From the NCBI GenBank assembly GCA_963744875.1, contig CAVUVQ010000050.1, positions 77,330 through 141,329 of the forward strand: DNA of 64,000 nt, given 5' to 3'. Made by a program: the position numbers and the translations under genes. Shown piece by piece: positions 34,396 to 51,552 of the stretch (position 1 is its first letter; each line of letters starts with the position of its first letter). The DNA is from an uncultured Chloroflexia bacterium. Its GTDB lineage: Bacteria; Chloroflexota; Ktedonobacteria; Ktedonobacterales; Ktedonobacteraceae. The notes beneath the pieces are model-generated. The model had not been told where the DNA came from, did no database searches, and worked only from the letters and a program-made list of their open reading frames with translations.

Positions 34396-34830
34396 ATGAA
34401 ACTTAGTGGTACACATAAGTTCAAAGCATCAAGCACACAGGTATTTAACGCAATACTGAACCCCGAAGTGCTCAAGTCTTGCATTCCTGGCTGCAACTCA
34501 ATCGAATATCTTGACAACAGTCACATCCAGGCCAACCTGGCTCTGCCTTTGCCTGGTCTGAAGGGTCCATACGGGGTCGTAATCAATATCGCCAATCAGC
34601 AAGCTCCGAACTACCTGGAACTACAGGTACAACGCAATGGTCGCGGTGGTTCGGTCAATGCAATTAGCCAGATCAATCTCGCGGATGAAGCAGATGGGGC
34701 AATGCTCTCTTACAATGCCAATGCCGACCTCTCCGGTACAATCGCTCTCGCCAATAATCCTATCGGTGAAGGTGCGGCCAAAAATGCTCTTGGCACGTTC
34801 TTCAAGAACCTGGATAAGACAATAGGCTAA
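34396..34830 (+). CDS. SRPBCC/CoxG family protein (carbon monoxide dehydrogenase subunit G-like)
   Basis: 144 aa. F.A....VF.A.LNPEVLK.CIPGC.S.E ... A.A.LSG..A......I.G.AK......F fits the CoxG pattern. Confidence 0.7.
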   Translation: MKLSGTHKFKASSTQVFNAILNPEVLKSCIPGCNSIEYLDNSHIQANLALPLPGLKGPYGVVINIANQQAPNYLELQVQRNGRGGSVNAISQINLADEADGAMLSYNANADLSGTIALANNPIGEGAAKNALGTFFKNLDKTIG

Positions 34831-34856
34831 CGCAACTGTATTCTATACAATATTAT

Positions 34857-34891
34857 GACGCCCATGTGTCACTGGTCTACACATGGGCGTC
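34857..34891. terminator. 13-bp perfect hairpin between convergent CoxG-like genes
   Basis: GACGCCCATGTGT (34857-34869), loop cactggtct, ACACATGGGCGTC (34879-34891). Confidence 0.6.
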
Positions 34892-34956
34892 GTCAATGCG
34901 GCTCTACACCGACGTATTTCGTGCATTGGCAACCACAGCAATGGTGGAATGTTGCG

Positions 34957-35412
34957 TTACTCTGCTACCGTGGATGTCTGCAATTTCGCCTTTAAACAGT
35001 CAAAAAACTGTCCGGTTAACTTCTCGGCGGTCCCATTCATAAGACGCGCTCCTACGCTGGCAATAGTTCCACTCACTACGACGTGGGCACTCCAATCCAT
35101 CTGTGTCTTTTCGGCATCGATTGCGGTAAGATGCATATTGCCCGCCAATTCAACTGCACTACCCGGTGCTTTGCCACGCCCTTTGACGATCATCACATCC
35201 GGTTCCTGCATCTCACGCGTCACGTCCAGCGTAAACTTTGCCTTGACCGGTCCAACACCCACGGCAATAACCGCCTTCCAGTGCTCCTCACCCAATACCT
35301 CCAGGCTCTGAAAACCGGGTGCACATTCTGCTACCTTGTTGACATCATATAAATAGGCCCATACGTCCTTTTGTGATGCTTCCATCGTCTGAGTCCCTGA
35401 AAATTCCATCAT
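34957..35412 (-). CDS. SRPBCC/CoxG family protein (second copy, convergent)
   Basis: 151 aa. VWAYLYDVNKVAECAPGFQSLE..GE..W......GVGPVKAKF ... VSGTIASVGARL...TAEKL..QFF.CL fits the CoxG pattern. Confidence 0.75.
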   Translation of the reverse strand: MMEFSGTQTMEASQKDVWAYLYDVNKVAECAPGFQSLEVLGEEHWKAVIAVGVGPVKAKFTLDVTREMQEPDVMIVKGRGKAPGSAVELAGNMHLTAIDAEKTQMDWSAHVVVSGTIASVGARLMNGTAEKLTGQFFDCLKAKLQTSTVAE

Positions 35413-35604
35413 ATTTCCCCTTCTTTAGCCCCGAATGTGACCTGATAGTATCAGAGCAAAAATCCACGGCGCTGTGTGGTTGTTTGCATCATATCACAAT
35501 TTGTGTTGCCTGCTTTTTCCAGTATAAACAAGACTCCTGCTAAGCTCCAAAGCGGGTAAAATGAGGACATAAGTCATCCAGACGAGAGGTTTTTTAGAAG
35601 ACCA

Positions 35605-36435
35605 TTATACGTCCTTGCTCATCTCAGCAAAGACCTGTTCGATGGCCCTGGGCAAGCGTTCTTCGGTACCACGAGGAGCGACCTCTTGCATCTGTTGAGC
35701 AACTTTTGTGATTGTCGTCTCACGGTCCCAACCACTCGCGATGGCTTCACCGACCTGTGCTCTCAACGTAATAAACCAATGACGCAGATCAGCAAGCGCG
35801 GCAGGCGTCTGGATCGGACCATGGCCGGGGATAGCATACGCCGCCTCCAATTGCTCTAATTGTTCCAGGGCATGAACCCAATGCTCTGTATTTCCCCCCG
35901 GCGGTGTCGCTGGCACAATTGCGTTGAAGAGAAGATCGCCCGTGAACAGCACACGTGATTGCGGCAACCACGCTACACTGTCGCTCGGACTATGGGCGAT
36001 ACCCAGATACAGAAGCTGCACTTCGATGTCACCGATGAATAGGGTCATCTTGTCTTGAAATGTAACGGTAGGAGGCGTGATTATTACATCACTGACGAAG
36101 GCACCCATGCGTGGATTCTGCTTCCAATTGGCAAGCGTCTGCTCACCATTGGCAACAAGATCATTGCGCACTCCCTCATGTGCGATAATCGGGCAATCGG
36201 CAAAAACCTGGTTCCCATAAACATGATCACCATGCGGATGCGTATTAAAAAGATAGAGCGCTCCCTCTTTACGATATTCCTGCGTGGCAGCACGCAAAGG
36301 AGTGGCCTCGACGGCGGCAATACCAGAATCCACGACGAGCACGTTCCCACCCTCGCTGATGATGCCACGATTGCAGACACCACCCAGCGCAGCATTGACT
36401 CCCGGTACTATTTCTTGTATGCTAAGATCAGACAT
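35605..36435 (-). CDS. MBL-fold metallo-hydrolase
   Basis: HPHGDHVYGN (HxHxDH motif), a later HSPSD, and GHG near the C-terminal third. 276 aa. Confidence 0.85.
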   Translation of the reverse strand: MSDLSIQEIVPGVNAALGGVCNRGIISEGGNVLVVDSGIAAVEATPLRAATQEYRKEGALYLFNTHPHGDHVYGNQVFADCPIIAHEGVRNDLVANGEQTLANWKQNPRMGAFVSDVIITPPTVTFQDKMTLFIGDIEVQLLYLGIAHSPSDSVAWLPQSRVLFTGDLLFNAIVPATPPGGNTEHWVHALEQLEQLEAAYAIPGHGPIQTPAALADLRHWFITLRAQVGEAIASGWDRETTITKVAQQMQEVAPRGTEERLPRAIEQVFAEMSKDV

Positions 36436-36765
36436 AGTTTTTCCTTCTTTTCAATTTTTTCTCAAACATTAGTCTCTTTATTTCATACCACATATTTTCG
36501 TTTACGTCTATGTTAAACTTAGTTCACACCTCAATCCATCGTAGATGGACACGTTGGTAGTTTTCTGGACCCCGGACAAATCAGTTAAAATTCATACGTA
36601 AAAATCTATTAGAAAGTTTGCAACATGTGCTGAGAGGCTGATGAAAAAGAGAAACATTGTATTAGCACACGTGCTGATGAGGAGGGTGAACATGAGACGT
36701 TGAAAGCGGATGCGATAGAGACTTATCCCATTTATCCTACTGATGATGAAAAAATATGATGTCTG

Positions 36766-36805
36766 GTGGGAAACCCTTGTGAAGAGTCCAGCAGGGGCTT
36801 CCCAC
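36766..36805 (-). terminator. Hairpin downstream of the double-glycine precursor gene
   Basis: GTGGGAAACCC (36766-36776) pairs with GGGGCTTCCCAC (36794-36805). On the minus strand a T-rich tract (tcatatttttt) follows about 10 nt later. Confidence 0.4.
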
Positions 36806-36811
36806 TAGACA

Positions 36812-37204
36812 TTATGGAAAGTCATTCTTGAAATTATTTATATCAAGATGACTTATGATATCTCGTGAGAAAAGGTATGGTAAGCATATTCTCCTACCAG
36901 TTGCATCCTGGTCTACCCTCGAAGGATGGGCCACCCTCGAAAGACGGTCCACCGAAACAGGATGGGTCACCCTCGAAAGATGGTTCACCAAACAAGATGG
37001 TCCACCCTCGAAAGACGGTCCACCGAAACAGGATGGGCCACCATAGCCAAAGAAGGGGTATCCACCGGTATCCCGGTCATTGTGACGCCAGCGATGATGA
37101 CCCCAATCATTGTCATCATGCTCACCTCTCCACCCACCAACGACGTTTTTCAGATCACTATCATTCAGTTCGAAGGCTATGACCTGCTCTTCATTTAAAT
37201 TCAT
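36812..37204 (-). CDS. Double-glycine-leader precursor peptide (bacteriocin/RiPP/pheromone-like) with Gly-Pro-Ser-Cys/Phe hexapeptide repeat core; 3' part probably frameshifted
   Basis: GAAAGGAAAC precedes ATG 37204. The leader MNLNEEQVIAFELNDSDLKNVVGG fits the double-glycine consensus (L-12, D-8, L-7, V-4, G-2, G-1). The core is WRGEHDDNDWGHHRWRHNDRDTGGYPFFGYGGPSCFGGPSFEGGPSC... As given, the ORF runs to 36812. Restoring one missing nt near 36989/36990 keeps the repeat register and ends the ORF at TAG 36894-36896. Confidence 0.65.
   Translation of the reverse strand: MNLNEEQVIAFELNDSDLKNVVGGWRGEHDDNDWGHHRWRHNDRDTGGYPFFGYGGPSCFGGPSFEGGPSCLVNHLSRVTHPVSVDRLSRVAHPSRVDQDATGRRICLPYLFSRDIISHLDINNFKNDFP
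36910..37034. repeat. Seven tandem 18-nt units (one unit only 17 nt) inside the precursor peptide gene
   Basis: Units start at 36910, 36928, 36946, 36964, 36982 (17 nt: GGTTCACC-AAACAAGAT versus GGTCCACCGAAACAGGAT), 36999 and 37017. On the minus strand they encode alternating G-x-P-S-C-F and G-x-P-S-F-E. Confidence 0.9.
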
Positions 37205-37533
37205 GTCAACAGTTTCCTTTCTTCTTACAAGAGAGAACAGCAATGAGTATCTCTTGTATCATTGATCAGGTGCGGAAAGCGTTTACATAAATATATCATA
37301 CATTTTTCTCTTTTACCATCTTATCGTATCCACGAAGTCTATATTAATATATCCTCTGTATACGTCTTTGAGTGCACCTATATTTATTATACTCGCAGGT
37401 GTATAAATAGGAAACAAAGTATTTTTTAAGGGGAGGTAGAATGCCCCAAAAGAGAGGTTGATTTGCGTTTCTTTCAACTATCCATTATAGTAAATCAATA
37501 GTATTGCAACAAAAAGGATATTTTTAAAAGCGT

Positions 37534-39921
37534 ATGGATAACGATAAACAACAGCAACCACCACAATCTCCCCAATGGGTATATAATCAAGATCAACCAC
37601 AGGCACCGCAAGCGGTGCCATTTAATGCTTATAATAACTATCCTCCACCAGAGAATAATCAACAATTCCCATCAGCGCCGTTACCTTATGACTATGATCC
37701 GAACCTGACGATGGATATGGGCAACTCCCTGAGCTATGGGCAGACCATGGACTTCCATGCCAGTAGTATGCCTCAGCCCACCCATTCCATACCTCGCATA
37801 CGTGAGAGACGCTTTAAGGAACTGCGTGAGAAACGGACGCGCAATAAACCAGTTCGCGGCTACCCGGATGTTGAAGCTCTTCAGCAACAACGTAAAGCTT
37901 CAGGCTTGCTGGCAAATGATAATACGCTCATTCCCGGTAAAAACATCATCGGCTCTTTATTTGGAAAAGGCAAGGCAAATAATCGTGGAACCAGACCAGG
38001 AACGCCAGAGAACTGGAGTGGCTCGGGAGTACATGGGATGCCAGGAGACTGGAGTGGCTCGGGAGTGCATGGAACACCTGCGGATTGGAGCAACTCGGGA
38101 GTGTATGGGATGCCAGGAGACTGGAGCGGTTCAGGGGTATATGGAGCATCAGAGACGGCAGTGGCAGAACCACATCCGCCCACACAAGGACAGGCGCATG
38201 GAACATTGGTGGCGGCGGCCACAGGGGCGCAAGATACAGGGATGATCCAACGCGTCAAGGTTGCACGCGCGGCATTCCTGATTACCAGGCGCATTTATGT
38301 TCAGCAGCGTTCTTGGACTGGTGCGCACATTCCTTTTTCCTTATGTCTTTGGGGTTAGTGGTATTTCTGACGCGTATGTACAAGCATACATTATTCCAAA
38401 TTTGCTGTATACAGTTATTGCAGGAGGTGCGCTTAGCTCGGCGTTTATTCCAGTCTTTACGCGCTATGCAGAGGGTTTGAAAGACGAGAATACTGCGTGG
38501 CATATTGCGAGTAGCGCACTGAATATTTCTGTGGTTATGATGTTGGCTTTTCTATCATTGCGATGATTCTTGCACCGATAATCGTGCCAATTTATGCTCC
38601 GGTGAGTGATGTTTTTACACCCGCTGACCAGAATTGGCATGACTCTGACACGTATCATACTGGTTCAGGCAATTGTTCTTGGTTCAGGTGTTATAGTTAG
38701 TTCTGTCCTCAATGCCAAACAGCATTTCACTCGTACCTCAATCGGTGCCGTCCTCTACAATGTGGGTCAGATTATTGGCTTTCTTCCTGGCGTCTTCCTC
38801 TCATCTCATTCACGAAGTAGCAATCCCAGCGATTTCGCCATCTATTCAGCTACGTGGGGTATTGTGCTGGCTGCTATCCTCCAGATTAGCGTACAAATCC
38901 CTGGCCTGTTCAAAGTGAAGATGCACTATACATTCTCTTTCGATTGGCGACATCCAGGAGTTAGACAGATCGGGCGGCAAATGGTGCCACGCGCTATTAA
39001 CGCTGCCATGCTCTCGTTCAGTACCGCATTGTGATCGCTTTCTCCTCTCTTTTCTAGTTGCAGTGGCAGGTGCTCAGGCGGTCGCTGGGCCTGTCAACAG
39101 AATATTTACAGGCTTTTTCTATCCTTATATTGCCCGTCTCGATCTTTGGCTCTTCTGTCTCGACAGCCGCTTTCCCAACTCTGGCAAGCTATGTAGCGCG
39201 TGAACGCTTCGACCGCGTACGTAGTATCATTATGGAAACATTACGCAGCATCCTTTTCCTCTCCATTCCCTCCTGCGTTGGCCTCATTATTCTGGCATTA
39301 CCAATCATCCAGGCGCTCCTGGAGCATGGTCGTTTTACACTAGGAAACGCTCAGCTCACAGCAGTTCCCCTGATTTTTTTTGCAGTGGGCCTACCCGGTC
39401 TGGCTGCTGTCGAGATCCTTACCCGCGCCTTCTATGCCTTGCGCGATAGTAAAACTCCTGTCGTTATCAGCATCATCCAATTTATCCTGAAGATCGCACT
39501 CAGTATCGTTTTGATCAATCTCTCAGTCTTCGGTCTGCAATGGGGTGTTGCAGCTCTGGCCTTTTCAACGTCGGTCGCCAGTTTTCTTGAGGCGGTCGTG
39601 CTGTTCATTTTGCTGTATCGGCGTATTGGTGGGTTCGATCTACGCGCCTTTGTCAGTTTTCTTGGACGTGCTCTGGTTGCTTCGCTTGGAATGGGCGTCG
39701 TGCTCTTTATTGTACGTAACATACTCGATCGCATGATTAATACAACGACCAGCCATACGCTCTCCGTGAGTGGGATTTTCCTGGCCCTCATCAAGCTACT
39801 GATCGAGCTGGGTATTGGCTCTCTGGTCTTTCTGATCATTGCCCGCCGTCTCAATATCGAAGAAATGGAGTCCGGCCCGGTACGCAAGATCCTCAATCGG
39901 TTACGCATCTCGTGGCTTTGA
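37534..39921 (+). pseudogene. murJ: Lipid II flippase MurJ (MviN family) with a roughly 250-aa low-complexity N-terminal extension; frame broken about 5 times
   Basis: Pieces in three frames read colinearly as MurJ: FMFSSVLGLVRTFLFPYVFGVSGISDAYVQAYIIPNLLYTVIAGGALSSAFIPVF; GFSIIAMILAPIIVPIYAP; LTRIILVQAIVLGSGVIVSSVLNAKQHF; VPRAINAAMLSFSTAL/DRFLLSFLVA; YLQAFSILILPVSIFGSSVSTAAFPTLA; LEHGRF; PGLAAVEILTRAFYALRDSKTPV. Frame changes lie near 38282-38300, 38540-38548, 38625-38640, 39020-39035 and 39090-39105. Confidence 0.75.
38008..38151 (+). repeat. Four tandem 36-nt (12-aa) repeats in the MurJ N-terminal extension
   Basis: ENWSGSGVHGMP / GDWSGSGVHGTP / ADWSNSGVYGMP / GDWSGSGVYGAS. Units start at 38008, 38044, 38080 and 38116. 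Confidence 0.9.
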
Positions 39922-39927
39922 TATGCC

Positions 39928-40001
39928 GCCCGATTGATCGCGCCCGCGTGTGGCATGATGAATGGTTCCACATACGCGGGCGCGATCAATCAGGCCCCTA
40001 C
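39928..40001. repeat. REP-like palindrome (GATTGATCGCGCCC type), left arm truncated
   Basis: GCCCGATTGATCGCGCCCGCGTGTGG (39928-39953) pairs with CCACATACGCGGGCGCGATCAATCAGGCCCCTAC (39968-40001). The terminal CTAC supplies the TAG stop (39998-40000) of the minus-strand kinase gene. The element starts 7 nt after the murJ stop. Confidence 0.85.
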
Positions 40002-42214
40002 ATTCCGGCGGTCATGGGCACCTGTGCCCCCACATTCTCCGCGTCCAGATCTGGTTGTTCAGCATTATTGATAACAGGCACCAGCGGCAGGTAGAGAGTA
40101 AATGCACTCCCCTGGCCTGGATTACTGACAAGCTTTAAAGTGCCTCCTAACAGGAAGCTTAACTGGTGCACAATCGAGAGGCCCAGCCCGGTGCCACCAT
40201 ATTTACGAGTTATACTACTATCGCCCTGATAGAACGCATCAAAAATGTGTTCCTGAACTTCTGGCGCAATTCCAATGCCAGTATCTTTCACCGTCAGGGC
40301 AATGCACTTCTCTTCATTATCTGGGAGGAACGCATGCGTCACTTCCACACAAACCTCCCCTTGCTCTGTGAACTTGATGGCATTGGAGAGTAAGTTGAGC
40401 AAAATCTGGTGGAGCTTGTCTGGATCGCTCTCGATCTCGTCGATACCCTGGGCAAAGTGAGTCAGCAGAGATACCTTTTTTTCGCTTGCCAGAGGACGAA
40501 TTTCTTCAATAATATCCGAGATGAGCGTAGACAACTGCACCGTACAGATATTCACGTTCATACGTCCAGCTTCAATCTTGAGTAGATCCAGCGTATCATT
40601 GATCAGGCTCAGCAGATGATTGCCGTTTTTGATGATGCGCCCGATGTTGTCCCGGTTGCGTTGCTCGTTGTGCGGCCTACATTCCAGATCGCGCAAGATA
40701 ATCTGGCTGAACCCTAGAATGGCTGTTAAGGGAGTGCGCAGTTCGTGCGTCATCGTTGACAGAAATTGGGTACGGGCTTTATTAGCTTCTTCAAGCGTTC
40801 CATTGAGCATACGGAGTTCGTTCCGCTGAATGCGCAAAGAAACGTTCATCTGCTCCTGCTCACGATTTTTAGCAATCAGTTCCTCGGCCTGAGCTTGAAT
40901 ATGTTCATAAGCTTTCGTATGACTGATGACAGTGGAGAGATTGCTGGAGACGACCGTGAGAATGTTGCGTGCCTGTTCAGTCATTGAATAAAGCGAACCA
41001 AACACCATGACGCCCAACAGGTCTTTCCCCTGAATCAATGGCAGATGGTACATACTGCCAGGTAAAACTTTCCCCAGCACTGTTTTAGCGATGAAATTGC
41101 CCGCTTCACTCGGTACAGGAGCGCGTATATAGAAAGGTGAACGCTTCAATGCCGTGCTACCAATCATACCTTCACCCATCGCAAACTCCTGCGTCAGTTC
41201 CGCAAAGTCAAAGCCCTGCGCACCCACCAGTACCAGGCGCTCTTTACGCACATCATACAGGTACAGAGCCGCAAGTTGCAGATGAAGCAAGGTCAACGCC
41301 TTATCCAGAAAAGTGGTGACCAATGTATCAAAATCAAGGGTGCTGGTGAGCAATGTGTTGAGCTGGAGTACGCTCTCCATAACATCACGATCTTTTTGCG
41401 CCGCACTTTGCTGCTGTAAAGCCGTTGCCATCGCATTAAAGGTTTTACCCAATTGGGAGAGTTCCAGGCTCTCTAACTCAGGAACACGGATAGCAAAATT
41501 GCCTTCCCCTAAACTATTGGAAGTATCCTCCAGAATGGCTAGCTGACGATAAAGCGCATCGGCAAAACGGATAAACATGCGCCAGAGAAGTAGAATAACA
41601 AGGAGTGAGAGGAGGAGTGAGATACTGGTAGCAACTAAGTTGAGCGCATCCATCCAGCTTTGTTGCTGCTCCACATCAAGACGAGATGCATCTTGTAAAT
41701 GGGCTGCCACCAGACGATAGTGATCAAAAAGCAATTTTCCTTGCTGGATAGTGCTTTCGGTCAGCACAAGCGTTCTCCGCCCATTGCGCATATTCGCTAG
41801 CTGAACCTGCGCATAATTTTCGTACCACGTATCAGCCTGAACCTCTACCTCCGGCAAAGCTGCCCGTGTATTACTAAAGTTATGCGTGTCAAGCAGTTCA
41901 TGCACTTGACCCAACATGGTTAGATACGTCTCATGACCACGATAAAATGGTTCGAGGAAAATCGTATTAGCGGTCGCGATATAACCACGTATCCCTGTTT
42001 CTTGATCGATCATCGCGCTCTGGAGGCCATTAATATCGTCACGTAATGTCAGGCTGTCGATGCTTGCGTTATGTTGTAGAGCAGAGGTAAGAATACTCGC
42101 GCTAAGATGGATTATCAGAACAACGAGCAAAAGCCCCATGTTGAAGAAGAGACGCGTGCGTATCTGCGTCACTAAGCTGCCGCGCTTTTCATGTGTAGAA
42201 AAGAGATGTTCCAT
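39998..42214 (-). CDS. Sensor histidine kinase with CHASE3-HAMP-GAF-HisKA-HATPase_c architecture
   Basis: GAGGGAGA precedes ATG 42214. One TM helix is followed by the CHASE3-like ETGIRGYIATANTIFLEPFYRG, a second TM helix, HAMP (ALYRQLAILEDTSNSLGEGNFAIRVPE), GAF, the H-box MTHELRTPLTAILG, the N-box LLSNAIKFT, and the G-boxes DTGIGI and GGTGLGLSIV. Confidence 0.88.
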   Translation of the reverse strand: MEHLFSTHEKRGSLVTQIRTRLFFNMGLLLVVLIIHLSASILTSALQHNASIDSLTLRDDINGLQSAMIDQETGIRGYIATANTIFLEPFYRGHETYLTMLGQVHELLDTHNFSNTRAALPEVEVQADTWYENYAQVQLANMRNGRRTLVLTESTIQQGKLLFDHYRLVAAHLQDASRLDVEQQQSWMDALNLVATSISLLLSLLVILLLWRMFIRFADALYRQLAILEDTSNSLGEGNFAIRVPELESLELSQLGKTFNAMATALQQQSAAQKDRDVMESVLQLNTLLTSTLDFDTLVTTFLDKALTLLHLQLAALYLYDVRKERLVLVGAQGFDFAELTQEFAMGEGMIGSTALKRSPFYIRAPVPSEAGNFIAKTVLGKVLPGSMYHLPLIQGKDLLGVMVFGSLYSMTEQARNILTVVSSNLSTVISHTKAYEHIQAQAEELIAKNREQEQMNVSLRIQRNELRMLNGTLEEANKARTQFLSTMTHELRTPLTAILGFSQIILRDLECRPHNEQRNRDNIGRIIKNGNHLLSLINDTLDLLKIEAGRMNVNICTVQLSTLISDIIEEIRPLASEKKVSLLTHFAQGIDEIESDPDKLHQILLNLLSNAIKFTEQGEVCVEVTHAFLPDNEEKCIALTVKDTGIGIAPEVQEHIFDAFYQGDSSITRKYGGTGLGLSIVHQLSFLLGGTLKLVSNPGQGSAFTLYLPLVPVINNAEQPDLDAENVGAQVPMTAGM

Positions 42215-42364
42215 AGATATTCTCCCTCGGTTGCTCTCTCCAACAAGCAACTAGATGTACCATAAAAAGTATACGCCTGCCACAAAAAGCTGAGGTTTTC
42301 GTGGCGACTATACTGAAAACAGGAAAAGGGAAAAAGGTAGTTTTCTAGTAAGGAGCTGTGTTCT

Positions 42365-42871
42365 ATGACACTTTTTTATCCTGAAGGGACTGCAGTTCAG
42401 GTATTGGATCCCACTAAGGAGACAGAACCCTCTGTACAAGAAGCTATGAGTGGACATGGGCAGCAGGAAAAAACAATTCTGATCGTTGAAGATGATGAAG
42501 ATCTGGGCGCACTGATTCTAGAAGCATTGCAGCAGGAGAGCTTCTATACGGGTATCCACTACCGCACACTGCTGGCTATTGATGGTATGGAAGCGCTAGG
42601 GATCATCGAGGATACGTTTCCCGATCTCTTTCTACTCGATTACTACCTCCCGCGCATCAATGGGCTGGATCTCTATGATCGCATGCATGCAATAGAGACG
42701 CTCTCCCAGGTGCCAACGATCTTCATGAGTGCCAACCCCCCATTCAAGGAACTCCGTAAGCGCAACCTGCTCAGTATTCGTAAACCGTTTAATTTGCGGG
42801 AGCTACTGGATACGATTGAGCGGGCATTGGCCGAACACCACATGCCCTTACCCGGCATAACCGATCAATAG
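42365..42871 (+). CDS. Single-domain response regulator (receiver)
   Basis: KTILIVEDDEDLG ... DLFLLDYYLPRINGLDLY ... PTIFMSA ... KPF. The conserved DD, D and K positions are present and there is no output domain. Confidence 0.85.
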   Translation: MTLFYPEGTAVQVLDPTKETEPSVQEAMSGHGQQEKTILIVEDDEDLGALILEALQQESFYTGIHYRTLLAIDGMEALGIIEDTFPDLFLLDYYLPRINGLDLYDRMHAIETLSQVPTIFMSANPPFKELRKRNLLSIRKPFNLRELLDTIERALAEHHMPLPGITDQ

Positions 42872-42961
42872 CCTACTACTCTGGCAAACATCATTGCACT
42901 CCTATTTGGAAGACTAATTGAGGGACCATCGCGTCTCTCCTGGTAGGGGCGTGTGCTTGCC

Positions 42962-43174
42962 CATTGACTCCAACTCTTTCGGAAAAAAATGACGCAAGCA
43001 CGACAGAATGCCTGCAATGCGCGGAAAACGGTAGGGACCCGATTGCATCGCGTCCGCCATTCATGGAATCGTGGCCCACGGGTGATCAATCACGGACGCG
43101 ATGCAATCGGGTCCCTACCGTTTTTCATGCTTTTCTGTGTTTTAGGCGCATCTTTCAATTTGTTGGAGTCAATG
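42962..43174. mobile_element. 213-bp MITE-like non-autonomous element: 13-bp perfect terminal inverted repeats and 9-bp target-site duplication, inserted into the arm of another palindrome
   Basis: TIRs are CATTGACTCCAAC (42962-42974) and GTTGGAGTCAATG (43162-43174). The flanking direct repeat is GTGCTTGCC (42953-42961 and 43175-43183). Removing the element plus one repeat copy restores a left arm GGTAGGGGCGTGTGCTTGCCACCGCCCGC that is exactly complementary to 43222-43250. The element has no coding capacity. Confidence 0.7.
43029..43120. repeat. REP-like hairpin, family A copy 1 (28-bp perfect arms, 36-nt loop)
   Basis: CGGTAGGGACCCGATTGCATCGCGTCCG (43029-43056) and its exact complement (43093-43120). 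It is flanked by AAAA on the left and TTTTT on the right. Confidence 0.9.
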
Positions 43175-43285
43175 GTGCTTGCCACCGCCCGCGTGCCAGA
43201 AAAGCATCGTGTATCGGCTCTGCGGGCGGTGGCAAGCACACGCCCCTACCCAGCCCTGAAAAGCGCAATGACCTTTGCCAGAGCA

Positions 43286-44206
43286 CTACGTGGGCAATGA
43301 TGGACGCGTATCAAGTGCATGCTGAATGATACGCTTTGTCGTCTCAAGCTCTGCACCTGCCAGCTCCAGGCGCGGAGCACGCACACGGGCACTACCCACC
43401 CCGGCCATCTCCTGGGCGAGCTTAATATATTGTACAAACTTTGGACCCGTATCCAGACGTAACAGAGGCAGAAACCAGTTGTAGAGCGCATCGATGCTGG
43501 CGGCATCTTTTTCTCCCTTGCGCACCTGCATGGCAAGTTCAAATAATGCAACCGCTTCCCTGGGAAAGACGTTCGCGAGGCCAGCCACCCACCCAACTGC
43601 ACCAGCCTGGATGCTCTCCACAATGCAATCATCAACTCCGGCGAGCAATGCAAGATGATCCTGTAGCAACGCACGGAGCGCGGTAATACGCCGCACATCG
43701 GCACTGGATTCTTTGACGGCCTCAAGGTTCGCGTTCTCATGTGCCAGTTCGGCAATCTGCTCTGGCAAGAAATCTGTTGTATACGCTGGTGGATTATTGT
43801 AAAGCATCGTGGGAAGGGCTGTGGAGGCGATGACGGTTGCTACATGTGCTTTCATCTCACGCCAATCGGTGGAGTAGACATAGGGCGGCAGAACCATCAG
43901 GCCACTGCATCCCGCCGCTTGAGCGGTATACGCCAGGCGGACGGCTTCGGCGGTTGAAAGTGCTGCAACGCCGCAAAGCACTGGCACTCGATCTCCCACC
44001 GCACGCACAGCCGTTTCCAGCAATGCAACCTTCTCCTGAAAACTCAGAGTTGCACTTTCACCTAGCGACCCCGGCGTGATCAGCCCGACGCAGCCCGCAT
44101 CGACTAACAAACGGCAATGATCGGCGAAAAACCCGTGATCAATGCTGTAATCCTGGTGAAAACGGGTTGTGATGGCAGGAATAACGCCTCTCCAGGTAAC
44201 TTTCAT
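43286..44206 (-). CDS. Dihydrodipicolinate synthase/N-acetylneuraminate lyase family (DapA-like class I aldolase)
   Basis: GVIPAITTRF......D...F..H...L...G..G....GSLGE..TLS..EK plus the later MLYNNP and K (VAVKES) are typical of the DHDPS family. ATG 44206 has GGAG 6 nt upstream; ATG 44212 is an alternative start. Confidence 0.8.
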   Translation of the reverse strand: MKVTWRGVIPAITTRFHQDYSIDHGFFADHCRLLVDAGCVGLITPGSLGESATLSFQEKVALLETAVRAVGDRVPVLCGVAALSTAEAVRLAYTAQAAGCSGLMVLPPYVYSTDWREMKAHVATVIASTALPTMLYNNPPAYTTDFLPEQIAELAHENANLEAVKESSADVRRITALRALLQDHLALLAGVDDCIVESIQAGAVGWVAGLANVFPREAVALFELAMQVRKGEKDAASIDALYNWFLPLLRLDTGPKFVQYIKLAQEMAGVGSARVRAPRLELAGAELETTKRIIQHALDTRPSLPT

Positions 44207-44243
44207 TGTCATCTCCAAAGGCTCTATGAACTTTGACAAAACA

Positions 44244-47200
44244 CTACATTTGGGATTCCAACGGCAACGCAAAGAAAAAGGTGCTCCCCTGACCAGGTTT
44301 ACTTTCCAGCCACATGCGACCCCCGTGCTGCTTCACGATGTTATGAGAGATATAAAGGCCCAGACCCAGACCATCAACTGACCCTTGCATATCGGCATGC
44401 ACACGGTAAAAACGTTCAAAGAGGTGCACCTGGTCTTCCGCCTCAATACCATCCCCCTCATCACACACTGCTACAACAACTTCGTTGCTGGCAGGTCGTC
44501 GTTCTACCGTTACCTCAATGGGGCTTCCAGCAGGGCTATACTTGTCAGCATTGCTCAGCAGGTTATTCAAAACCTGTTCTATGCGATCCTTATCCGCAGT
44601 TATCAGAATGGCTTCTTCACCAATTTGCACAGAGACAGGATGCTTTTGCAATGCTTGCTGATCAACAACGCTACGAACCAACTCCACTAAATCAACATTT
44701 TCCTGCTTATGCAACTCGAAGATTTCCCCCTGGAGACGAGTGACATCCAGCATGTCAGTGACAAGACTATTCATATTGCTAAGTTGGTGGAGAATACGCT
44801 CGATCTGGGTAAGGCTCTGGTCGAGATGCTGCTCACGCGTCTGGGCCTGACCAAGAGAAGTGGTATGCCTTATTAAAGTTCGCTGCAAAAGCTGGGTATT
44901 TGCCTGAATAGTAGTTAGAGGAGAACGTAACTCATGCGCTACTAATGAAAGAAAATCATCTCTCATCAGTTCAATCTGTTCGAGGTTTTTGCGTGCACTT
45001 ACCTGCTCCGTGATCTCCACAGCAGAAACGAGCATGTAGCGCACAGCATCCAATTCTGTATCGATAATGGCGGTGAGGTTATAATCCCAGACCGTTGCAG
45101 ATCCATCTCCCGCAAACGAAAGGGTAAGCTCCGGAATACGGAACGTAGCACGATCCTCGACCACTCTTTTCCAGGTCAGTATAGGATCTTCGTCGGGCAG
45201 CAGTAATGGCATCTCCTGCCAGGTATGACCTGGGACGCTATCTGGAGCTGCTTGATGCGCCTGGGCAACCAGTTCAAGATAACGCGGACTTCCCATCAGT
45301 AATGCCTCAGTCCGCCCATCATAAAGAGCCAATGCCACGGTTCGCGTATTAGCAAAGACCGTTTTGAGCTGGGCGAGTTCCTCCTGGAGTTCCTGCGCAT
45401 GCTGCTCCGTCTCATCTGACGCGTAGATGATCACGCCATCCACGCGGCCTGAAGCGTTATGAGAAGGGACAAGCGTATACGAAAAATAGCCTTCCTTTTG
45501 CTCATCTGATACCTTACTTTGTGTCCCAGGTATAATAGTACGAATACGCGATAACGTTTTTGGCAATTCTTTCACGTAAACTTCACGCGCAAGGTGCATT
45601 AAAGCAAAACCTGCCTTCGGTTCCCAGAACAGATTGATCACGTCCTCTAACGCGTGCCCCTGGACACTCGCTTCTTCCAATAAACGCGCATAGCGCGGAT
45701 TGTATGCTTCGACCACCAGAGCAGGACCACGCAAAACAAGAATATAAAATGGTGCGAACTCCACCATCTCGGAGAGGCGTACATGCTCATTCTCCAGGGA
45801 GGTCGTCAGTTCTTGCAGTTCACTGGTGCGAGCACGTAGTTCATCGTTGGTCGTCTCTAACTCCTCATTGGTGGCCTGCAACTCCTCGTTATTTGTTTCC
45901 AGCTCCTCGTTGGTCGCTTGCAACTCCTCGTTGGTCGTTTCAAACTCCTCAATACTTGCCTGTAACTCCTCGTGTGTTAACATGAGTTCCTCGTTGGCAA
46001 CTTGCAACTCTTCGTTGGCATCCATAAGCTCTTTATTCATATCGCTCAGGCGTTTGTTAGCTGTACTCAGCTCTTGCATCAACTGCAACTGTTCACTGTG
46101 GACACTCTCCAATTGGCGACGGATATGGACCTGATCAGTTACATCGCTGATACTGATCGCTGCAAGATCCGGTAAACTGGCATCCAGTTGCATTACGGCG
46201 ATAGAGAGACTCACAAAGCGTCCATTGCCACCCGCGGATACTTCAAGTTCTACTTCTGGCAAAGTAATAGAATTGCGCTCACGGAAAACCGTATCGATAG
46301 CCGCACGCGTCCCATGATAAGGAATACCATGCACCGTGTGCAAAAAATCCTGATCTATAGCAACATCACGTAGACCAAGCAAACGACGAGCAGAATTGTT
46401 GGCAGTCAAGATATGGTAGGTACGATCGATAATTATGACACCAAGAGGAAGAAAACGCAGCAGAAGCTCGTTGAAACGACGCAGTTGCCCCAACTCCAAC
46501 GAGAGAGATAACGGCTCCTGCTGATCCGCATGTGTTCTTCCTGATGATCGCAGTGAGCGATCCATAACGTTCCTCTCCTGCGAAGGTGCTTTTTTCTCCG
46601 AAAGACTACGTTGATTGGCTGAAGGAAGCGCATTACCAATACAGCGATATATTTTCCAGAGCTTATTCTCCAGCATGTAAAATAACTGCGCAGGGCGTAC
46701 CGTTTCCGCTTTCCCTAGAAAGAGAAATCCATTGGGATTGAGAGAAAAGGCAAACTGATTGAGCACATAATCCTGTAGTTCGGCTGTAAAATAGATCAAA
46801 ACATTGCGGCAGAGCACCAGGTCTATATGCGGAAAAGGGGCACTATGGCTAAGATCTTGCCGTCCAAATATGACCATTTGCCGCAGCGTTTTTGAAATGC
46901 GATAGCCATGATCGACCCGTTCAAAGAACCGCTCCTGATAATCACGTGGCACTCCTTTGAGCAGATTCTCGGAATAGATCCCACGCCGGGCGAAGGTAAT
47001 TGCAGCTTCATCTAGATCTGTTGCAAAGATCTTGATACTCCATTCGGGCAGTTCCACACTCAGAAGATCTGTGAGCAGCATTGCAAGTGAATAAGGTTCT
47101 TCCCCTGTTGCACAGCCTGCCGTCCAGAAGCGCAAGACGTGATCACGCTGGCGGCCATCCGCAATTAAAGCAGGCAAAATATCACTTCTAAGATAGGCAA

Positions 47201-48059
47201 AGGCATCAGCATCACGAAAAAACTGCGTGACATTGATGAGAAAAGCCTTGACTAGCTCGCCTACCTCCTCAGGATGAAGCCTCAGATAATTTGCGTATTC
47301 CTGGATAGTCTTATTATGCGTCACAGTCATGCGTCGACCGACACGACGCAGAATAGTCGACGTTTTGTAGGGATGAAAATCAATACTCGCCTGTTGACTC
47401 ACCAACTCAAGAATATCGTGCAAAACATCCTCGGTTCGCTCCTCTGTCAGCGGAATATTCACGCCATTTAGCAATTCATACAGCAACGGGCCAATACGTT
47501 CAATATTCACTTCAAAATCGATGATGGTGGGAGGAAGTGCTAGCGGCATAGAGGGATAACGCGCTGTCTGAGGATCCTGCACAATAACGGTTCCACCTGC
47601 ATTTTTTACGTCGACCGCGCCCGCAGCCCCATCCGACCCGGAACCAGTCAAAATAACCGCAATCAGGTGCTCTCCATAGGATTCAGCAGCAGAGGAGAGC
47701 AGGGTATCGACAGAGGGACGGGGCCGCTTCTTGCGATCCTCCATCAAATAGACATGGTGATCCCTTATAGAAACATGACGATTTGCAGGTACGACATAAA
47801 TTCGACCCGGATACAATTTTGTATTCTCTTGCACAATCTCAACGACCAGGTTGGTACGTTTTCGCAATATAATATCAAGTGAACTGGGACGATTGGGGTC
47901 AAGATGTTGTGCCAGTACCAGGGGCGCTGGAAAGTCTTCAGGCAAGGTACTCACCAGAATGGAGAGCGCTTCAATACCTCCTGCTGAAGAGCCAACTACG
48001 ATCAGATCACTCGATTGAACAGTATCTTGCTCAATAGTATCTTGCTCAATAGTATCCAC
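44244..48059 (-). CDS. CheB methylesterase-CheR methyltransferase fusion joined to PAS, heptad coiled coil, PAS, HisKA and HATPase_c (1271 aa)
   Basis: CheB domain: VVGSSAGGIEAL...LTGSGSDGA.G...K.AGG.VIVQDP. CheR domain: FFRD...F..L...ILP......R.WTAGCATGEEPYSLAML...IFATD.D..A...AR.G.Y ... CRNVLIYF. Eleven heptads of xxEELxx follow (residues about 680-756). The kinase core has VAHELRSPLTT, LLSNADKYSP, DEGDGI and GLGLGLYI. Confidence 0.9.
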   Translation of the reverse strand: MDTIEQDTIEQDTVQSSDLIVVGSSAGGIEALSILVSTLPEDFPAPLVLAQHLDPNRPSSLDIILRKRTNLVVEIVQENTKLYPGRIYVVPANRHVSIRDHHVYLMEDRKKRPRPSVDTLLSSAAESYGEHLIAVILTGSGSDGAAGAVDVKNAGGTVIVQDPQTARYPSMPLALPPTIIDFEVNIERIGPLLYELLNGVNIPLTEERTEDVLHDILELVSQQASIDFHPYKTSTILRRVGRRMTVTHNKTIQEYANYLRLHPEEVGELVKAFLINVTQFFRDADAFAYLRSDILPALIADGRQRDHVLRFWTAGCATGEEPYSLAMLLTDLLSVELPEWSIKIFATDLDEAAITFARRGIYSENLLKGVPRDYQERFFERVDHGYRISKTLRQMVIFGRQDLSHSAPFPHIDLVLCRNVLIYFTAELQDYVLNQFAFSLNPNGFLFLGKAETVRPAQLFYMLENKLWKIYRCIGNALPSANQRSLSEKKAPSQERNVMDRSLRSSGRTHADQQEPLSLSLELGQLRRFNELLLRFLPLGVIIIDRTYHILTANNSARRLLGLRDVAIDQDFLHTVHGIPYHGTRAAIDTVFRERNSITLPEVELEVSAGGNGRFVSLSIAVMQLDASLPDLAAISISDVTDQVHIRRQLESVHSEQLQLMQELSTANKRLSDMNKELMDANEELQVANEELMLTHEELQASIEEFETTNEELQATNEELETNNEELQATNEELETTNDELRARTSELQELTTSLENEHVRLSEMVEFAPFYILVLRGPALVVEAYNPRYARLLEEASVQGHALEDVINLFWEPKAGFALMHLAREVYVKELPKTLSRIRTIIPGTQSKVSDEQKEGYFSYTLVPSHNASGRVDGVIIYASDETEQHAQELQEELAQLKTVFANTRTVALALYDGRTEALLMGSPRYLELVAQAHQAAPDSVPGHTWQEMPLLLPDEDPILTWKRVVEDRATFRIPELTLSFAGDGSATVWDYNLTAIIDTELDAVRYMLVSAVEITEQVSARKNLEQIELMRDDFLSLVAHELRSPLTTIQANTQLLQRTLIRHTTSLGQAQTREQHLDQSLTQIERILHQLSNMNSLVTDMLDVTRLQGEIFELHKQENVDLVELVRSVVDQQALQKHPVSVQIGEEAILITADKDRIEQVLNNLLSNADKYSPAGSPIEVTVERRPASNEVVVAVCDEGDGIEAEDQVHLFERFYRVHADMQGSVDGLGLGLYISHNIVKQHGGRMWLESKPGQGSTFFFALPLESQM

Positions 48060-48248
48060 AGGATTCCACTCTCTTCTCTATTCATCACGTAAAAAAGTGA
48101 GCGGGCCGCATCTTCTTCGATCCGCTCTCAACATATACCATTACTATAGACTTCTTTGATACTACTGTCAATATATTTTTGAGCCCTCGTTCCGCCTGGA
48201 GCAAACATTGAGGCCGTTGGTAGGGCGTCACCCAATAGCGTTCAATGC

Positions 48249-49301
48249 CTATGGCTCTAACGAAGCTGAATCAACATCTTTCAAAGCAGGAATTTCTTTT
48301 CGTGTGAGCACCTGGCGCAATAAAATTGCACGTTGTTCTGCCTCCTGTACCCTGACATTCAGACGCTCCGCAAGCCATCCATGCCCGTTCTGTAAGGCCT
48401 GCTTTGCCATACGACGCGAAAGGCTGGCGTTCTCGTCCAGCGTTTTTAACGCAACCCATAACGCCTGCTCAATCTTCTCGGTTTGCTCCGCAAGGGCGCT
48501 ATCAGGTGAGAATGCATGCCCCGTACGGCAACGAAAGCGCGTCAGCTCATCATCATGCAATTCCCACAATACACCACCACATTCTGGACAAGAATACGCC
48601 GATGGACTCCCTACCTGTTCATTCTCACTCAATGGATTTGTCTCCATTTCAGCAATTCTCACTTCTCGCTTCATATCCTCTGAAGCTGAGGGAATATTTT
48701 CTTGCACAATCTCCTCACGAGCCAATTGCGCCAGGGTCAACCCTATCTGGGCAAGTGGTAAACAATAATCAACATTTACATGAGCCAGTGCACTTTTCGG
48801 CATATCGGGATAGAGGGCATTTGTTGGGTCTTGCACGACCGCTACTCCACCACGCTGTTTAATAGCAAGCAACCCGGCAGTGCCATCGTCCAACGAGCCT
48901 GTCAACACTACACCAATAACCTGTGAACCATAAGCAACGGCTGCAGAACGGAAGAGAGGATCAATGGCTGGCCGATGACGGTTCTCCCTGGGGCCTCGCA
49001 CAACTCGCATAAACCCACTCTCGATGAGCAAATGATGATCTGGTGACGCAACATAAATACGTCCACGCTCGATCCGCTGATAATCTACAGGTTGCTCTAC
49101 TTTTATAAAAGTAGAGCGATTGAGAATTTCAGCCAATAGGCTGGGACTCTGCGCTGGAATATGTAATACAATGAAGACACTGGCTGAAAAGTTCACCGGG
49201 AATTCACGTACTACTTGTATGAGCGCTTCCACACCACCCGCAGAAGCCCCTACAACGATGATTTCATGTCCTGACACAAAAATCTCCCCTCCTGACATCA
49301 T
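48249..49301 (-). CDS. CheB-type protein-glutamate methylesterase domain protein with C-terminal zinc-ribbon/helical extension (no receiver domain)
   Basis: IIVVGASAGGVEAL ... HIPA.SPS.LAEIL ... VVLTGSLDDGTAGLLAIKQRGGVAVVQDP, then CPECGGVLWE...FRCRTGHAFS. It lies directly upstream of, and on the same strand as, the CheB-CheR kinase. Confidence 0.8.
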   Translation of the reverse strand: MMSGGEIFVSGHEIIVVGASAGGVEALIQVVREFPVNFSASVFIVLHIPAQSPSLLAEILNRSTFIKVEQPVDYQRIERGRIYVASPDHHLLIESGFMRVVRGPRENRHRPAIDPLFRSAAVAYGSQVIGVVLTGSLDDGTAGLLAIKQRGGVAVVQDPTNALYPDMPKSALAHVNVDYCLPLAQIGLTLAQLAREEIVQENIPSASEDMKREVRIAEMETNPLSENEQVGSPSAYSCPECGGVLWELHDDELTRFRCRTGHAFSPDSALAEQTEKIEQALWVALKTLDENASLSRRMAKQALQNGHGWLAERLNVRVQEAEQRAILLRQVLTRKEIPALKDVDSASLEP

Positions 49302-49630
49302 GAAACAGCATAATTAATTATCTTATCAGGTACACGCTTGAACCCTGCAAATCGTCGCACCACTCTCCCCATCAGACACATCTCCCACCGAAAAAGTCAT
49401 CCCTATCATGAACTCTTCCACAAACGGTTTCCTTAGAATTCCTTAGAATTTACTGTAAAAAGGAAGGTTTTATCGAAAATCCCTTGCTCATTCCACCAAT
49501 GTGCGCTACAATATACAAAATATCGTTACCTATCTCTACCATATGCCCAACCTGGAGGATTTATAGTAGTAACTAAGAGTATAACTTCAAAACAGGCGCA
49601 ATGGAAGTATTGTTCGTCAGAAAGGGCTTT

Positions 49631-51328
49631 ATGCAAACGCCAATTAGCGAATATATTCGACAGTTACGACGACAACGAGGAATGACCCAGACCGAATTGG
49701 GTGGAGAACACTTCTCAAAATCCTATGTTAGCGCCGTTGAACGTGAGAAAATCGTTCCATCTTATGCTGCTCTACGCTTCTTTGCCGAGCAACTCGATCA
49801 GTCGGCTGACTACTTTCAAGAACTTGCTGAACAACCTGTACCTCTTCCACAAAACACGACTCAGCTCGTCTCCTCCTTTGAGAATGAGGACGATGATGAG
49901 CTAGATGAGAGCATTGAACTGCTGGACATGGTCCTGGAGGGTTCAGAATTACAACATACTTCTTTCTCACAGAAGGTATCTACACTTCCTCTGGAAGCAC
50001 TGATGCGCCTTCCATTTCAGAAGCAGGCTCGCTATTGCTTGATGAAAGGATTAATCTTGCAAGAACAGGGAAATCTTGCGGATGCCCAATCTCTTCTGGA
50101 ACGCGCCCTCGTCCTTTCCCCCACAAAAAACCAATCCGCTATTCTCGATGCCCTGGGGACGAATTACTCCCTCGCCTTCAGCTATCAAACGGCATCAAGC
50201 TATCATCAACGTGCATTGCACCTCTTAGACCTCGATGAAACTGATAGGAAAACCTCTGCCCTTTTCCTAAAAATAAAGCTTCACTGTGGAGATGACCAGC
50301 GAGCACTCAATAGACACGCAGAGGCACTTGAACACTATGAGCATGCACGCCAATCTTTACGCTCAACCAGTAATATGGACATAGCAGCACAGGTCTATAT
50401 AGGGTTGGGCTACTGTACTTATGCATCAGTCTACCAGAACCCGACAGCTACAAAGGTCTCTTATGAAGAAAAGGAACGTCGGCTACAACAGGCTGCGACC
50501 TTCCTCCTCCAAAGCCGTACCCTCTACCAGATCAGTAGTAACCGCACTGGCGAAGCGAAGGCTCGCCTGCTGCACGCCAGCGTTTTGCTTAGCATCTGTT
50601 CACTACGTCGCCATGCTGCATTGGAACGTGCACAGGATGGAGAGGCTATACGATCTTTGCAATGTGCCACCCTACTCGATGAAGCAGGAGAGCAATGCCG
50701 CCAGGTACTTCTGGTCTGGAACGAGACAATGCTCATTAGCAATCAGTCCTCCTCTGACCTGGAAATTGTGTTATATACGGCTCTCTCTACCCTCGTCAGC
50801 ACCTATATACAACGTGCAGTCATAGCTCGTCTGGAAGGGTATAACGATACAGCCCTGCATGACCGCGCATATGCAGCCCATCTTTGCCAGCAGATCCTCG
50901 ATACATTAACAAAACCTGAGCTTCTACATTCACTAACACGCGATGCTCTTGCGCCGGAAATCAGGGGAATATACAGCAGTCAGGCATTACCTCGCCTGCC
51001 AGATCTGGATAAAAACGTGCCGCCCCATCATCCCATGAGCATAGCAATCATATTCTCGGCAGCAGGAGAAGTTGCTGAAGAATTAGGACGCTTCGCCACA
51101 AATTCAGTCTATGCCGCCACTTGTTATGCCCATGCCAATACATGTTTCAAAACTTCCTTACGGATAGACCGCCAATCTACGTTCTCAAAAGAACATGATG
51201 CAAGCTTTCTCATGCGTCGTTGTCAACACTACATCACACTTATCGAAGAACGTCTTCAGTCCACAACTGAAAACACAGAAGAGACCTGCAAGATGATACT
51301 TGATCTCTTCAAAGATACCGTGTATTAA
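49631..51328 (+). CDS. XRE-family helix-turn-helix regulator fused to a long TPR-like domain (paralog of 23703-25040)
   Basis: ISEYIRQLRRQRGMTQTELGGEHFSKSYVSAVEREKIVPSYAALRFFAEQL is followed by about 490 aa of helical repeats. I preferred ATG 49631 (AAAGGG upstream); the ORF track opens at 49601. Confidence 0.75.
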   Translation: MQTPISEYIRQLRRQRGMTQTELGGEHFSKSYVSAVEREKIVPSYAALRFFAEQLDQSADYFQELAEQPVPLPQNTTQLVSSFENEDDDELDESIELLDMVLEGSELQHTSFSQKVSTLPLEALMRLPFQKQARYCLMKGLILQEQGNLADAQSLLERALVLSPTKNQSAILDALGTNYSLAFSYQTASSYHQRALHLLDLDETDRKTSALFLKIKLHCGDDQRALNRHAEALEHYEHARQSLRSTSNMDIAAQVYIGLGYCTYASVYQNPTATKVSYEEKERRLQQAATFLLQSRTLYQISSNRTGEAKARLLHASVLLSICSLRRHAALERAQDGEAIRSLQCATLLDEAGEQCRQVLLVWNETMLISNQSSSDLEIVLYTALSTLVSTYIQRAVIARLEGYNDTALHDRAYAAHLCQQILDTLTKPELLHSLTRDALAPEIRGIYSSQALPRLPDLDKNVPPHHPMSIAIIFSAAGEVAEELGRFATNSVYAATCYAHANTCFKTSLRIDRQSTFSKEHDASFLMRRCQHYITLIEERLQSTTENTEETCKMILDLFKDTVY

Positions 51329-51329
51329 A

Positions 51330-51420: not shown

Positions 51421-51552
51421 TTTTTCGCGCGTTTCTCCATTTTTGACGAATTCCTCTTGCACCGATCCTTGCCTTTATAAAATGCATCTTGTATACTTAA
51501 AGCAGATTTCCATAAACTTTTTCCATATTCTCCCAGAAGGAAGGAACAGCAA

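Follow-up and report, generated by a model that had tools for sequence, protein, structure and literature searches.

The window analysed here, the whole 64-kb stretch of Ktedonobacteraceae DNA, has a GC content of ~50%, and close homologues of its proteins carry names that assign it to this family, in the phylum Chloroflexota. It contains many long hairpins with GTAGGG...CCCTAC at their ends, and every arm consists of a GTAG head followed by a small imperfect palindrome of its own. The motif GTAGGGRC is present in 19 copies where 1.8 would be expected, lying between ORFs in the examples inspected. One such palindrome, 87 bp long and REPIN-like, is located in a 415-bp spacer between convergent genes for a response regulator (42365-42871, plus strand) and a DHDPS-family protein (43286-44206, minus strand). 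Its right REP is intact and its left REP is interrupted by a 213-bp element. The features of this site, and two further copies of the hairpin at the core of the element, are as follows.

42942 to 42952, plus strand: head of the host REP-like palindrome, GGTAGGGGCGT (GTAG head and the bases up to the cut site), seen as an inverted repeat
42953 to 42961, unstranded: left 9-bp target-site duplication, GTGCTTGCC, a direct repeat
42962 to 42974, plus strand: left terminal inverted repeat (TIR), CATTGACTCCAAC, identical in ~25 copies elsewhere
42975 to 43023, plus strand: MITE left arm, an IRL-like end, ~90% identical to the copy on contig L048
43024 to 43125, unstranded: core hairpin ('family A'), AAAACG and GTAGGGACCCGATTGCATCGCGTCC ..., then the inverted copy and CGTTTT
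43126 to 43161, plus strand: MITE right arm, from alignments
43162 to 43174, minus strand: right TIR (GTTGGAGTCAATG on the plus strand), from the repeat finder
43175 to 43183, unstranded: right 9-bp target-site duplication, GTGCTTGCC, a direct repeat
43184 to 43221, plus strand: rest of the interrupted left REP (ACCGCCCGC), then the 29-nt loop of the host REPIN-like palindrome
43222 to 43250, minus strand: intact right arm of the host palindrome, a built-in empty-site template that matches the reconstituted arm perfectly
51327 to 51455, plus strand: core hairpin copy 2 (hairpin part 51327-51424) and ~34 nt similar to the right arm of the MITE; TIRs not recognisable
60282 to 60379, plus strand: core hairpin copy 3, with no TIRs

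The repeat finder matched the left TIR to its exact reverse complement at all 13 of 13 positions, and neither CATTGACTCCAAC nor its reverse complement has a further zero-mismatch copy within the 64-kb window. The TIRs are directly abutted by the two copies of the 9-bp repeat. According to the same program, the pieces of the host arm left on either side (42942-42961 and 43175-43192) both show 100% complementarity with 43222-43250, and removal of the element with one repeat copy restores a perfect 29-nt hairpin arm, the element-free reading of the site across 42953|43184 being GGCGTGTGCTTGCCACCGCC. The reconstituted 29-mer has its sole match in the window at 43222-43250 (minus strand, 0 mismatches), where none is expected by chance. 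A preliminary description of this DNA had claimed a 213-bp element with 13-bp TIRs and a 9-bp duplication whose removal restores a hairpin, and we reproduced each of these features in the sequence. A candidate reading with a 14-bp TIR and a 7-bp duplication, which takes in the C/G pair adjoining the TIRs, was ruled out since the base there differs among other copies of the element; 13 bp and 9 bp is thus the correct reading.

The element has no coding capacity, as the preliminary description also held: the ORFs that overlap it extend out into the flanks and were judged spurious, and a gene caller run on a 99%-identical contig (L001) placed no gene over it. The whole 213 bp folds into a single long hairpin (-66.8 kcal/mol, z = -11.4). 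Size (below the ~300-400 bp usual for prokaryotic MITEs), non-coding character and TIRs are all those of a prokaryotic MITE, and the same holds for a family-typical duplication, occurrence at several sites and a cognate IS with the same ends, described below. The element is therefore a real MITE and had been correctly recognised as such.

Copies elsewhere were sought with a 22-nt pattern composed of the TIR and degenerate subterminal bases, in one genome per GTDB species and in JGI metagenomes. The former scan returned nine loci, of which seven are real (six in Chloroflexia MAGs and one, L008, in an Anaerolineaceae MAG) and two are chance matches, and the latter 26 loci, ~19 of them real. Altogether, ~25 further copies with an identical 13-bp TIR are present in MAGs and metagenomes of Ktedonobacteraceae and other Chloroflexota. 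The window's own locus was not among the matches in the GTDB one-genome-per-species scan, and its genome is therefore no species representative there. L002/L022, L004/L037, L005, L020, L027, L030 and L034/L035 were rejected as chance matches to the pattern, having no second TIR and an unrelated composition. MITE copies delimited at other loci are listed below.

L003: 265 bp, 10-bp duplication ACGCAAGGTG
L006: 229 bp, 10-bp duplication with 1 mismatch
L008: 356 bp, 10-bp duplication GTTCCAAACC
L009: 227 bp, 10-bp duplication CATTTATAAG
L033: 226 bp, without direct duplication
L024: 227 bp, right TIR at the contig end
L028: 149 bp, without direct duplication
L011: 130 bp, without direct duplication
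L023: 122 bp, without direct duplication

The duplication is 10 bp long in five of the six elements that have one (L003, L006, L008, L009 and L039) and 9 bp in the window copy, so that 10 bp is typical of the family and the 9 bp seen here a minor variant. The preliminary description had looked to 9-bp duplications at other sites for confirmation; duplications do occur there, at the length of 10 bp. Alignments of sister copies show the TIR conserved at 13 of 13 positions whereas the arms have clearly diverged. The left arm of the window copy is recognisably related in alignment to those of L033 and L024, and a left-arm nhmmer profile matches 42962-42991 with E = 5e-6. A 224-bp sister MITE with perfect TIRs (L048, 6922-7145) has a left arm ~90% identical to that of the window copy. 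Its contig shares its ENA sample with L001, matches window positions 60422-64000 at 97.7% identity and reaches ~9.9 kb past the window. The sister copy thus lies ~3.3 kb beyond the end of the window, in a strain 97.7-99% identical. Copy number in this lineage is accordingly judged from one sister copy in a near-identical strain and two TIR-less core copies. In the ENA assembly (ERZ25039523), contig L001 ends at ~51525 and L048 begins at ~60422, right at hairpin copies 2 and 3, which suggests that the family A repeat is abundant enough to break assembly. This is also of practical concern, as contig ends that coincide with such repeats indicate that they break metagenome assemblies.

Full-length IS copies of 1.37-1.57 kb carry the identical TIR (L031, L039 and L010), only the first being intact, and L036 and L043 are further IS copies with this TIR. 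A single-copy element with no related IS had been named as the outcome that would speak against the transposon interpretation; the family is instead multi-copy, with a sister copy in the same lineage and an IS sharing its ends. The intact IS (L031, 121-1602) is 1482 bp long with the same perfect TIRs and one ORF of 481 aa, which scores 129.1 bits against NCBIfam NF033592 'IS4 family transposase' (cut-off 115) and 55.4 bits against Pfam PF01609 (DDE_Tnp_1; cut-off 23). The IS4 family is defined by the motif Y-(2)-R-(3)-E-(6)-K around the catalytic E. We read this signature from the translations as YARRWDIELAFGVLK in L031 and YARRWDIELAFKLVK in L010. With ends beginning CATTGAC, a single ORF and 9-10-bp duplications, the parent IS has the characters of that family (a TIR starting 5'-CA and duplications of ~9-12 bp). 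The copy at L010 (3627-5194, 1568 bp, same perfect TIRs) has a transposase disrupted by frameshifts together with six perfect tandem duplications, its C-terminal fragment matching DDE_Tnp_1 and IS4-family models, and L039 is a frameshifted 1373-bp copy with the 10-bp duplication GGGCGGTGGA. These copies fall into two transposase subgroups (L031/L039/L026 and L010/L036/L043) that share 43% protein identity and an identical 13-bp TIR. The right end of the window MITE equals the 3' end of the L039-type IS for 20 nt inward from the tip, and by eye the left arm of its subfamily resembles the 5' end of the L010-type IS. The earlier proposal of a DDE-type insertion with a built-in empty-site control thus agrees with the TIRs, the duplication, the intact partner arm and the IS4 DDE transposase encoded by full-length copies. 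It had also been noted that the window encodes no transposase able to mobilise the element, and a tblastn search for a cognate transposase in the 64 kb gave a best E-value of only 0.33. The closest annotated IS in plasmids are IS4-family transposases of Nostoc, with only 33% identity, and a search for solved structures related by sequence to the IS transposase found none.

Several observations were made in passing on these IS copies. The tandem duplications at L010 (4278-5110) have periods of 9-18 bp and up to six copies, which could reflect a slippage-prone history or an artefact of long-read assembly. Distant IS4-family relatives, identified by tblastn, occur at L012 (3364-5935) and L013 (3880-4873), with transposases 48-50% identical to that of L031, and an IS5-like element with the TIR GAGGCCTGGTCATAAATG is inserted at the right end of the former.

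The position of the insertions is not random. In all six elements with a duplication, the duplication begins exactly 10 nt after the G of the head, counting [G/A]TAG-type heads and, in L006, the variant CTATGGG, and in the clearest cases (window, L003 and L008) it straddles the tip of the REP's own stem-loop. A head lies 19-20 nt from the TIR tip at 19 of the 36 observable element ends, against ~0.1 expected from background frequency (18 in the script's own count of heads at -19/-20, because its regex does not allow overlaps and passed over the L009 head at -20). Most of the head-less ends border the far-side half of a REP, as would be expected if a single asymmetric REP is split. Elements occur in both orientations relative to the head. 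The distant relatives at L012 (TIR CATAGATGCCAAC) and L013 (TIR CATCTGTTCCAAC) lie exactly 20 nt from a GTAGGGGC head, that is, at the same spacing. Most copies are thus found in REP palindromes at a defined position, as in other REP-targeting IS, and insertion is site-specific, with the duplication starting 10 nt after the G of the GTAGGGRC head of a REP-like palindrome. The preliminary description was right in placing the element inside the arm of another palindrome. Its presence there is not due to chance, as members of the family enter REP-like palindromes with a GTAG head at one fixed position.

Both the targets and the core of the MITE have the hallmarks of REP/REPIN sequences, namely a GTAG head with an imperfect palindrome, arrangement in inverted doublets, and over-representation. 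A second targeted REP family, GTAGGGGCGTCACCTTGC, was seen both empty (window 9919-10000, L003 2153 and L032 1763) and filled (L003 and L048). The REP family of the window host (GTGCTTGCCACCGCCCGG...) was found in one other place, L019:1-290, where it is likewise occupied by a MITE at the same position. That insert belongs to a different subfamily, lies in the opposite orientation and represents an independent insertion at an unrelated locus in a JGI metagenome, with the partner arm intact. Had all host palindromes held the same internal segment, the segment would have been part of the repeat, as the preliminary description had pointed out; the two known copies hold different ones. As a separate observation, L048 contains a BIME-like cluster at 5175-5370, with two direct copies and one inverted copy of GTAGGGACCCGGTTCTACCGCGTCCGCGATTTATCGACCC.

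These observations bear on the view that no transposition took place, and that a composite BIME-like mosaic, built by REP/RAYT activity or by replication fold-back, comprises the TIRs, the 9-bp repeat and the hairpins as its layers, the apparent duplication being part of the repeat unit. The density of palindromes in the spacer, which includes an extra outer inverted repeat (42874-42900 / 43262-43288), the folding of the whole 213 bp as a single hairpin (with the z-score given above), and the L019 copy of the host palindrome being filled at the same position all lend themselves to such an account. We nevertheless regard it as extremely improbable: the same TIRs bound elements with unrelated 10-bp duplications in different REP families as well as IS copies encoding an IS4 DDE transposase, the L019 insert is of another subfamily and orientation, and the GTAGGGGCGTCACCTTGC family exists in both states.

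A direct duplication is lacking in L010, L028, L033, L048, L011, L023 and L031. In L048, L028 and L010 the flanks are two inverted 'head + 9-10 nt' copies from one REP family, in L033 two heads of different families, in L023 two far-side halves, and in L031 a head and an unrelated far-side half. Inverted flanks of the form 'GTAG head + 9-10 nt' next to perfect TIRs were recorded at L048:6902-7165, L028:172-360, L010:3608-5213 and L033:3403-3667; the 20-nt flanks in L048 are perfect reverse complements, as if the element had replaced the interior of a REPIN. For the double-head flanks, insertion in one step into a REPIN folded as a cruciform or hairpin was considered and dropped, no consistent product being derivable from it. 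Recombination between copies predicts these flank patterns and is the simpler account; it might have proceeded by inversion or deletion, or by two insertions in both REPs of one REPIN followed by deletion of the intervening DNA. Since the duplication is missing in several members, extra rearrangement steps are assumed for those.

The core hairpin (43030-43119) is a REPIN-like doublet of two GTAG-headed REPs that recurs in the window at 51331-51419 and 60286-60374, and in alignments no other internal part of the element is as well conserved, the arms being visibly more divergent. The preliminary description had seen it as the innermost of three nested generations of repeats. Read in this way, the locus would have undergone three successive insertions, a plain MITE entering the host palindrome and a family A REPIN then entering the MITE, for example via a RAYT-type tyrosine transposase. 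The core hairpin does occur without recognisable TIRs at 51327-51424 and 60282-60379, and other subfamilies have different GTAG hairpins (L006/L007, L008 and L041) or none (L011 and L023), implying repeated hairpin acquisition in the wider family. We consider a nested origin in the present subfamily to be quite unlikely, because the core is found at the same position (~nt 69-156) with the same AAAACG/CGTTTT junctions in L048, L033, L024, L032 and L038, all at unrelated sites. Moreover, L028, L029 and L021 resemble internal deletions of hairpin-bearing copies, and copy 2 in the window continues past its hairpin into ~34 nt of MITE right arm. From its shared position in sister copies, the hairpin would predate this insertion and have moved along with the MITE; judged by these sequence comparisons, it is an integral core of the window's subfamily rather than a later nested insertion, and the inner layer of the nesting falls away. 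Acquisition of hairpins in the wider family would have been earlier and probably took place more than once, given that other subfamilies carry other hairpins or none.

Copies 2 and 3 of the hairpin may represent MITEs in decay. Profiles built from the arms only gave a marginal E ~0.1 for the right arm of copy 2 and no match for the left arm of either copy. The idea fits the remark that truncated MITEs which lose their TIRs come to resemble REPs (PMC10969869). With respect to the core itself, we observed that its loop is flipped in orientation between sister MITEs (window 43056-43093 compared with L048:7015-7052, and L033 compared with L038), which is consistent with inversion between inverted REP arms.

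Heads of the core type, GTAGGGAC, serve as targets in L028, L033 and L040. Because such heads are themselves targets, each insertion would split one target and deliver two new potential ones. This raises the tentative and on balance doubtful idea that REPIN-like hairpins have spread as cargo of a REP-inserting DDE-type MITE, and not (only) by RAYT, with targets that renew themselves and TIR-less family A hairpins representing decayed MITEs. If true, a self-renewing target supply could account for layered palindrome mosaics.

At the level of the locus, the insertion is shared by the ENA metagenome contig L001, which is 99% identical over window positions 32367-51525 and differs within the element by one internal indel. 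In relatives with DHDPS genes 81-94% identical, the spacer measures 0-63 bp and the host palindrome was found in none; the 415-bp mosaic is therefore specific to this lineage. With the site occupied in the 99% strain and the whole spacer missing in more distant relatives, the evidence for insertion at this site consists of the intact partner arm and the behaviour of the family. Between the same convergent genes, one relative with a DHDPS gene 93% identical carries another hairpin, headed by ATAGGGGC (L045:3422-3484); together with the 0-46 bp spacers of other relatives, this marks the site as one where such repeats have landed repeatedly. The host palindrome is enclosed by an outer, imperfect inverted repeat, GCAATGA..TTTG.CAGAG..TA.G (42872-42900 / 43262-43288), which recurs at 56860-56887 beside a single GTAGGGAC REP at 56883. 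Given this extra repeat, the whole 415-bp spacer may be a four-layer mosaic.

The setting between convergent genes also brings up the possibility that the element is an immobile relic, kept as a bidirectional terminator or mRNA-stabilising hairpin between the response-regulator and DHDPS-family genes. The core is flanked by AAAACG...CGTTTTT and has a very stable fold, and in the related species represented by L045 this spacer contains another GTAG hairpin. A simple promoter/terminator scan did not call the core as a terminator, and an Rfam scan of 42700-43400 with permissive filters returned only sub-threshold hairpin-type miRNA/sRNA matches and no known RNA family. Relatives manage with spacers of 0-46 bp and no hairpin, and perfect TIRs with a perfect duplication point to a recent insertion. 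As an explanation of the element, such a relic is unlikely; it is at the same time compatible with a MITE and not exclusive of it, and the element may have a second function in terminating transcription of the convergent genes in both directions.

Taken as a MITE, the 213-bp element very probably derives from an IS4-family IS of Ktedonobacteraceae/Chloroflexota, is mobilised in trans, targets REPs and carries an inherited REPIN-like core. A DDE transposase from full-length copies elsewhere would bind the 13-bp TIRs, as family membership implies, and would move the element by cut-and-paste, by analogy with IS10 and IS50. The transposase would presumably recognise the head as duplex DNA. The stagger of the cut, 9-10 bp, is shown by the duplications, and so is its place, the head-proximal cut falling 10 bp past the G of the GTAGGGRC head and the duplicated bases straddling the tip of the REP stem-loop. 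The MITE would have retained the IS ends and carried the inherited double-REP hairpin as its core. In the window, the event would have been an insertion into the left REP of the 87-bp REPIN-like palindrome between the convergent genes, with the right REP spared.

IS1397 and ISKpn1 are IS3-family elements with two ORFs and 3-4-bp duplications, and they insert in the palindrome loop. They resemble the present family in transposase-determined insertion into REP palindromes, and differ in belonging to the IS3 transposase family and having no known MITE, whereas the family described here is of the IS4 type and has one. Their insertion in enterobacterial REP/BIME palindromes is backed by experimental evidence for target specificity (cited in PMC1525189). 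REP targeting has been reported in the IS3, IS110, IS4, IS256 and IS5 families (PMC1525189), and ISRm22, an IS4-family element of Sinorhizobium meliloti, was located in REP elements in 10 of 10 copies (Tobes & Pareja 2006, PMC1525189). By its description, to which the likeness is confined, ISRm22 is an IS4-family DDE element found in REPs, as here. Unlike this proteobacterial autonomous IS, the present family belongs to Chloroflexota, has a 10-nt spacing from the GTAG head and includes a hairpin-carrying MITE. The 213-bp element is also like Correia, RUP, Chunjie, QMITE and MIC231 in being non-autonomous, keeping IS ends and folding into a hairpin. Of these, MIC231, an IS231-derived mobile insertion cassette, is an IS4-family example. 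IS-derived MITEs such as Correia, RUP, Chunjie and QMITE consist of IS ends only, are mobilised in trans, are mostly intergenic and often form long hairpins (PMC10969869).

GTAG-tagged REPs have been reported in Chloroflexi (Di Nocera 2013, PMC3733652). The targets and the MITE core share with GTAG-tagged REPs and REPINs (PMC3733652; Bertels & Rainey 2011, PMC3116915) the GTAG head, the imperfect palindrome and the inverted doublets. The current view is that RAYT tyrosine transposases move REPINs with no target duplication, whereas here a REPIN-like hairpin lies inside a DDE-type MITE. The element thus unites two kinds already known, IS4-derived MITEs and REP-targeting IS. The survey of REP-targeting IS (PMC1525189) mentions no MITE derivative of such an IS, the 2024 review of prokaryotic MITEs (PMC10969869) reports no REP-targeting or REPIN-cored MITE and mentions neither IS4, REPIN nor nested elements, and a REP-targeting MITE with a REPIN-like core is described in neither.

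A single insertion has in this way led to a defined and apparently unnamed IS4-family IS/MITE group with a simple rule of insertion (GTAG head, 10-bp spacing, 9-10-bp stagger). REP targeting by IS has so far been known mainly from Proteobacteria and autonomous IS; here it extends to Ktedonobacteraceae and other Chloroflexota, and to a MITE that itself bears REP-like sequences. The element links MITEs and REP/REPINs, which are usually treated apart, and provides one possible account of the way in which nested palindrome mosaics accumulate in intergenic DNA. Its significance would be greater only if DDE-driven spread of REP-like hairpins proved general in the phylum. Other repeats in the window include imperfect tandem repeats at 36907-37042, 37999-38142 and 45841-46008, with periods of 18, 36 and 21 nt, respectively, the last of which lies in the coiled-coil part (NEELQATNEELE...) of a CheB/CheR-PAS histidine kinase gene.
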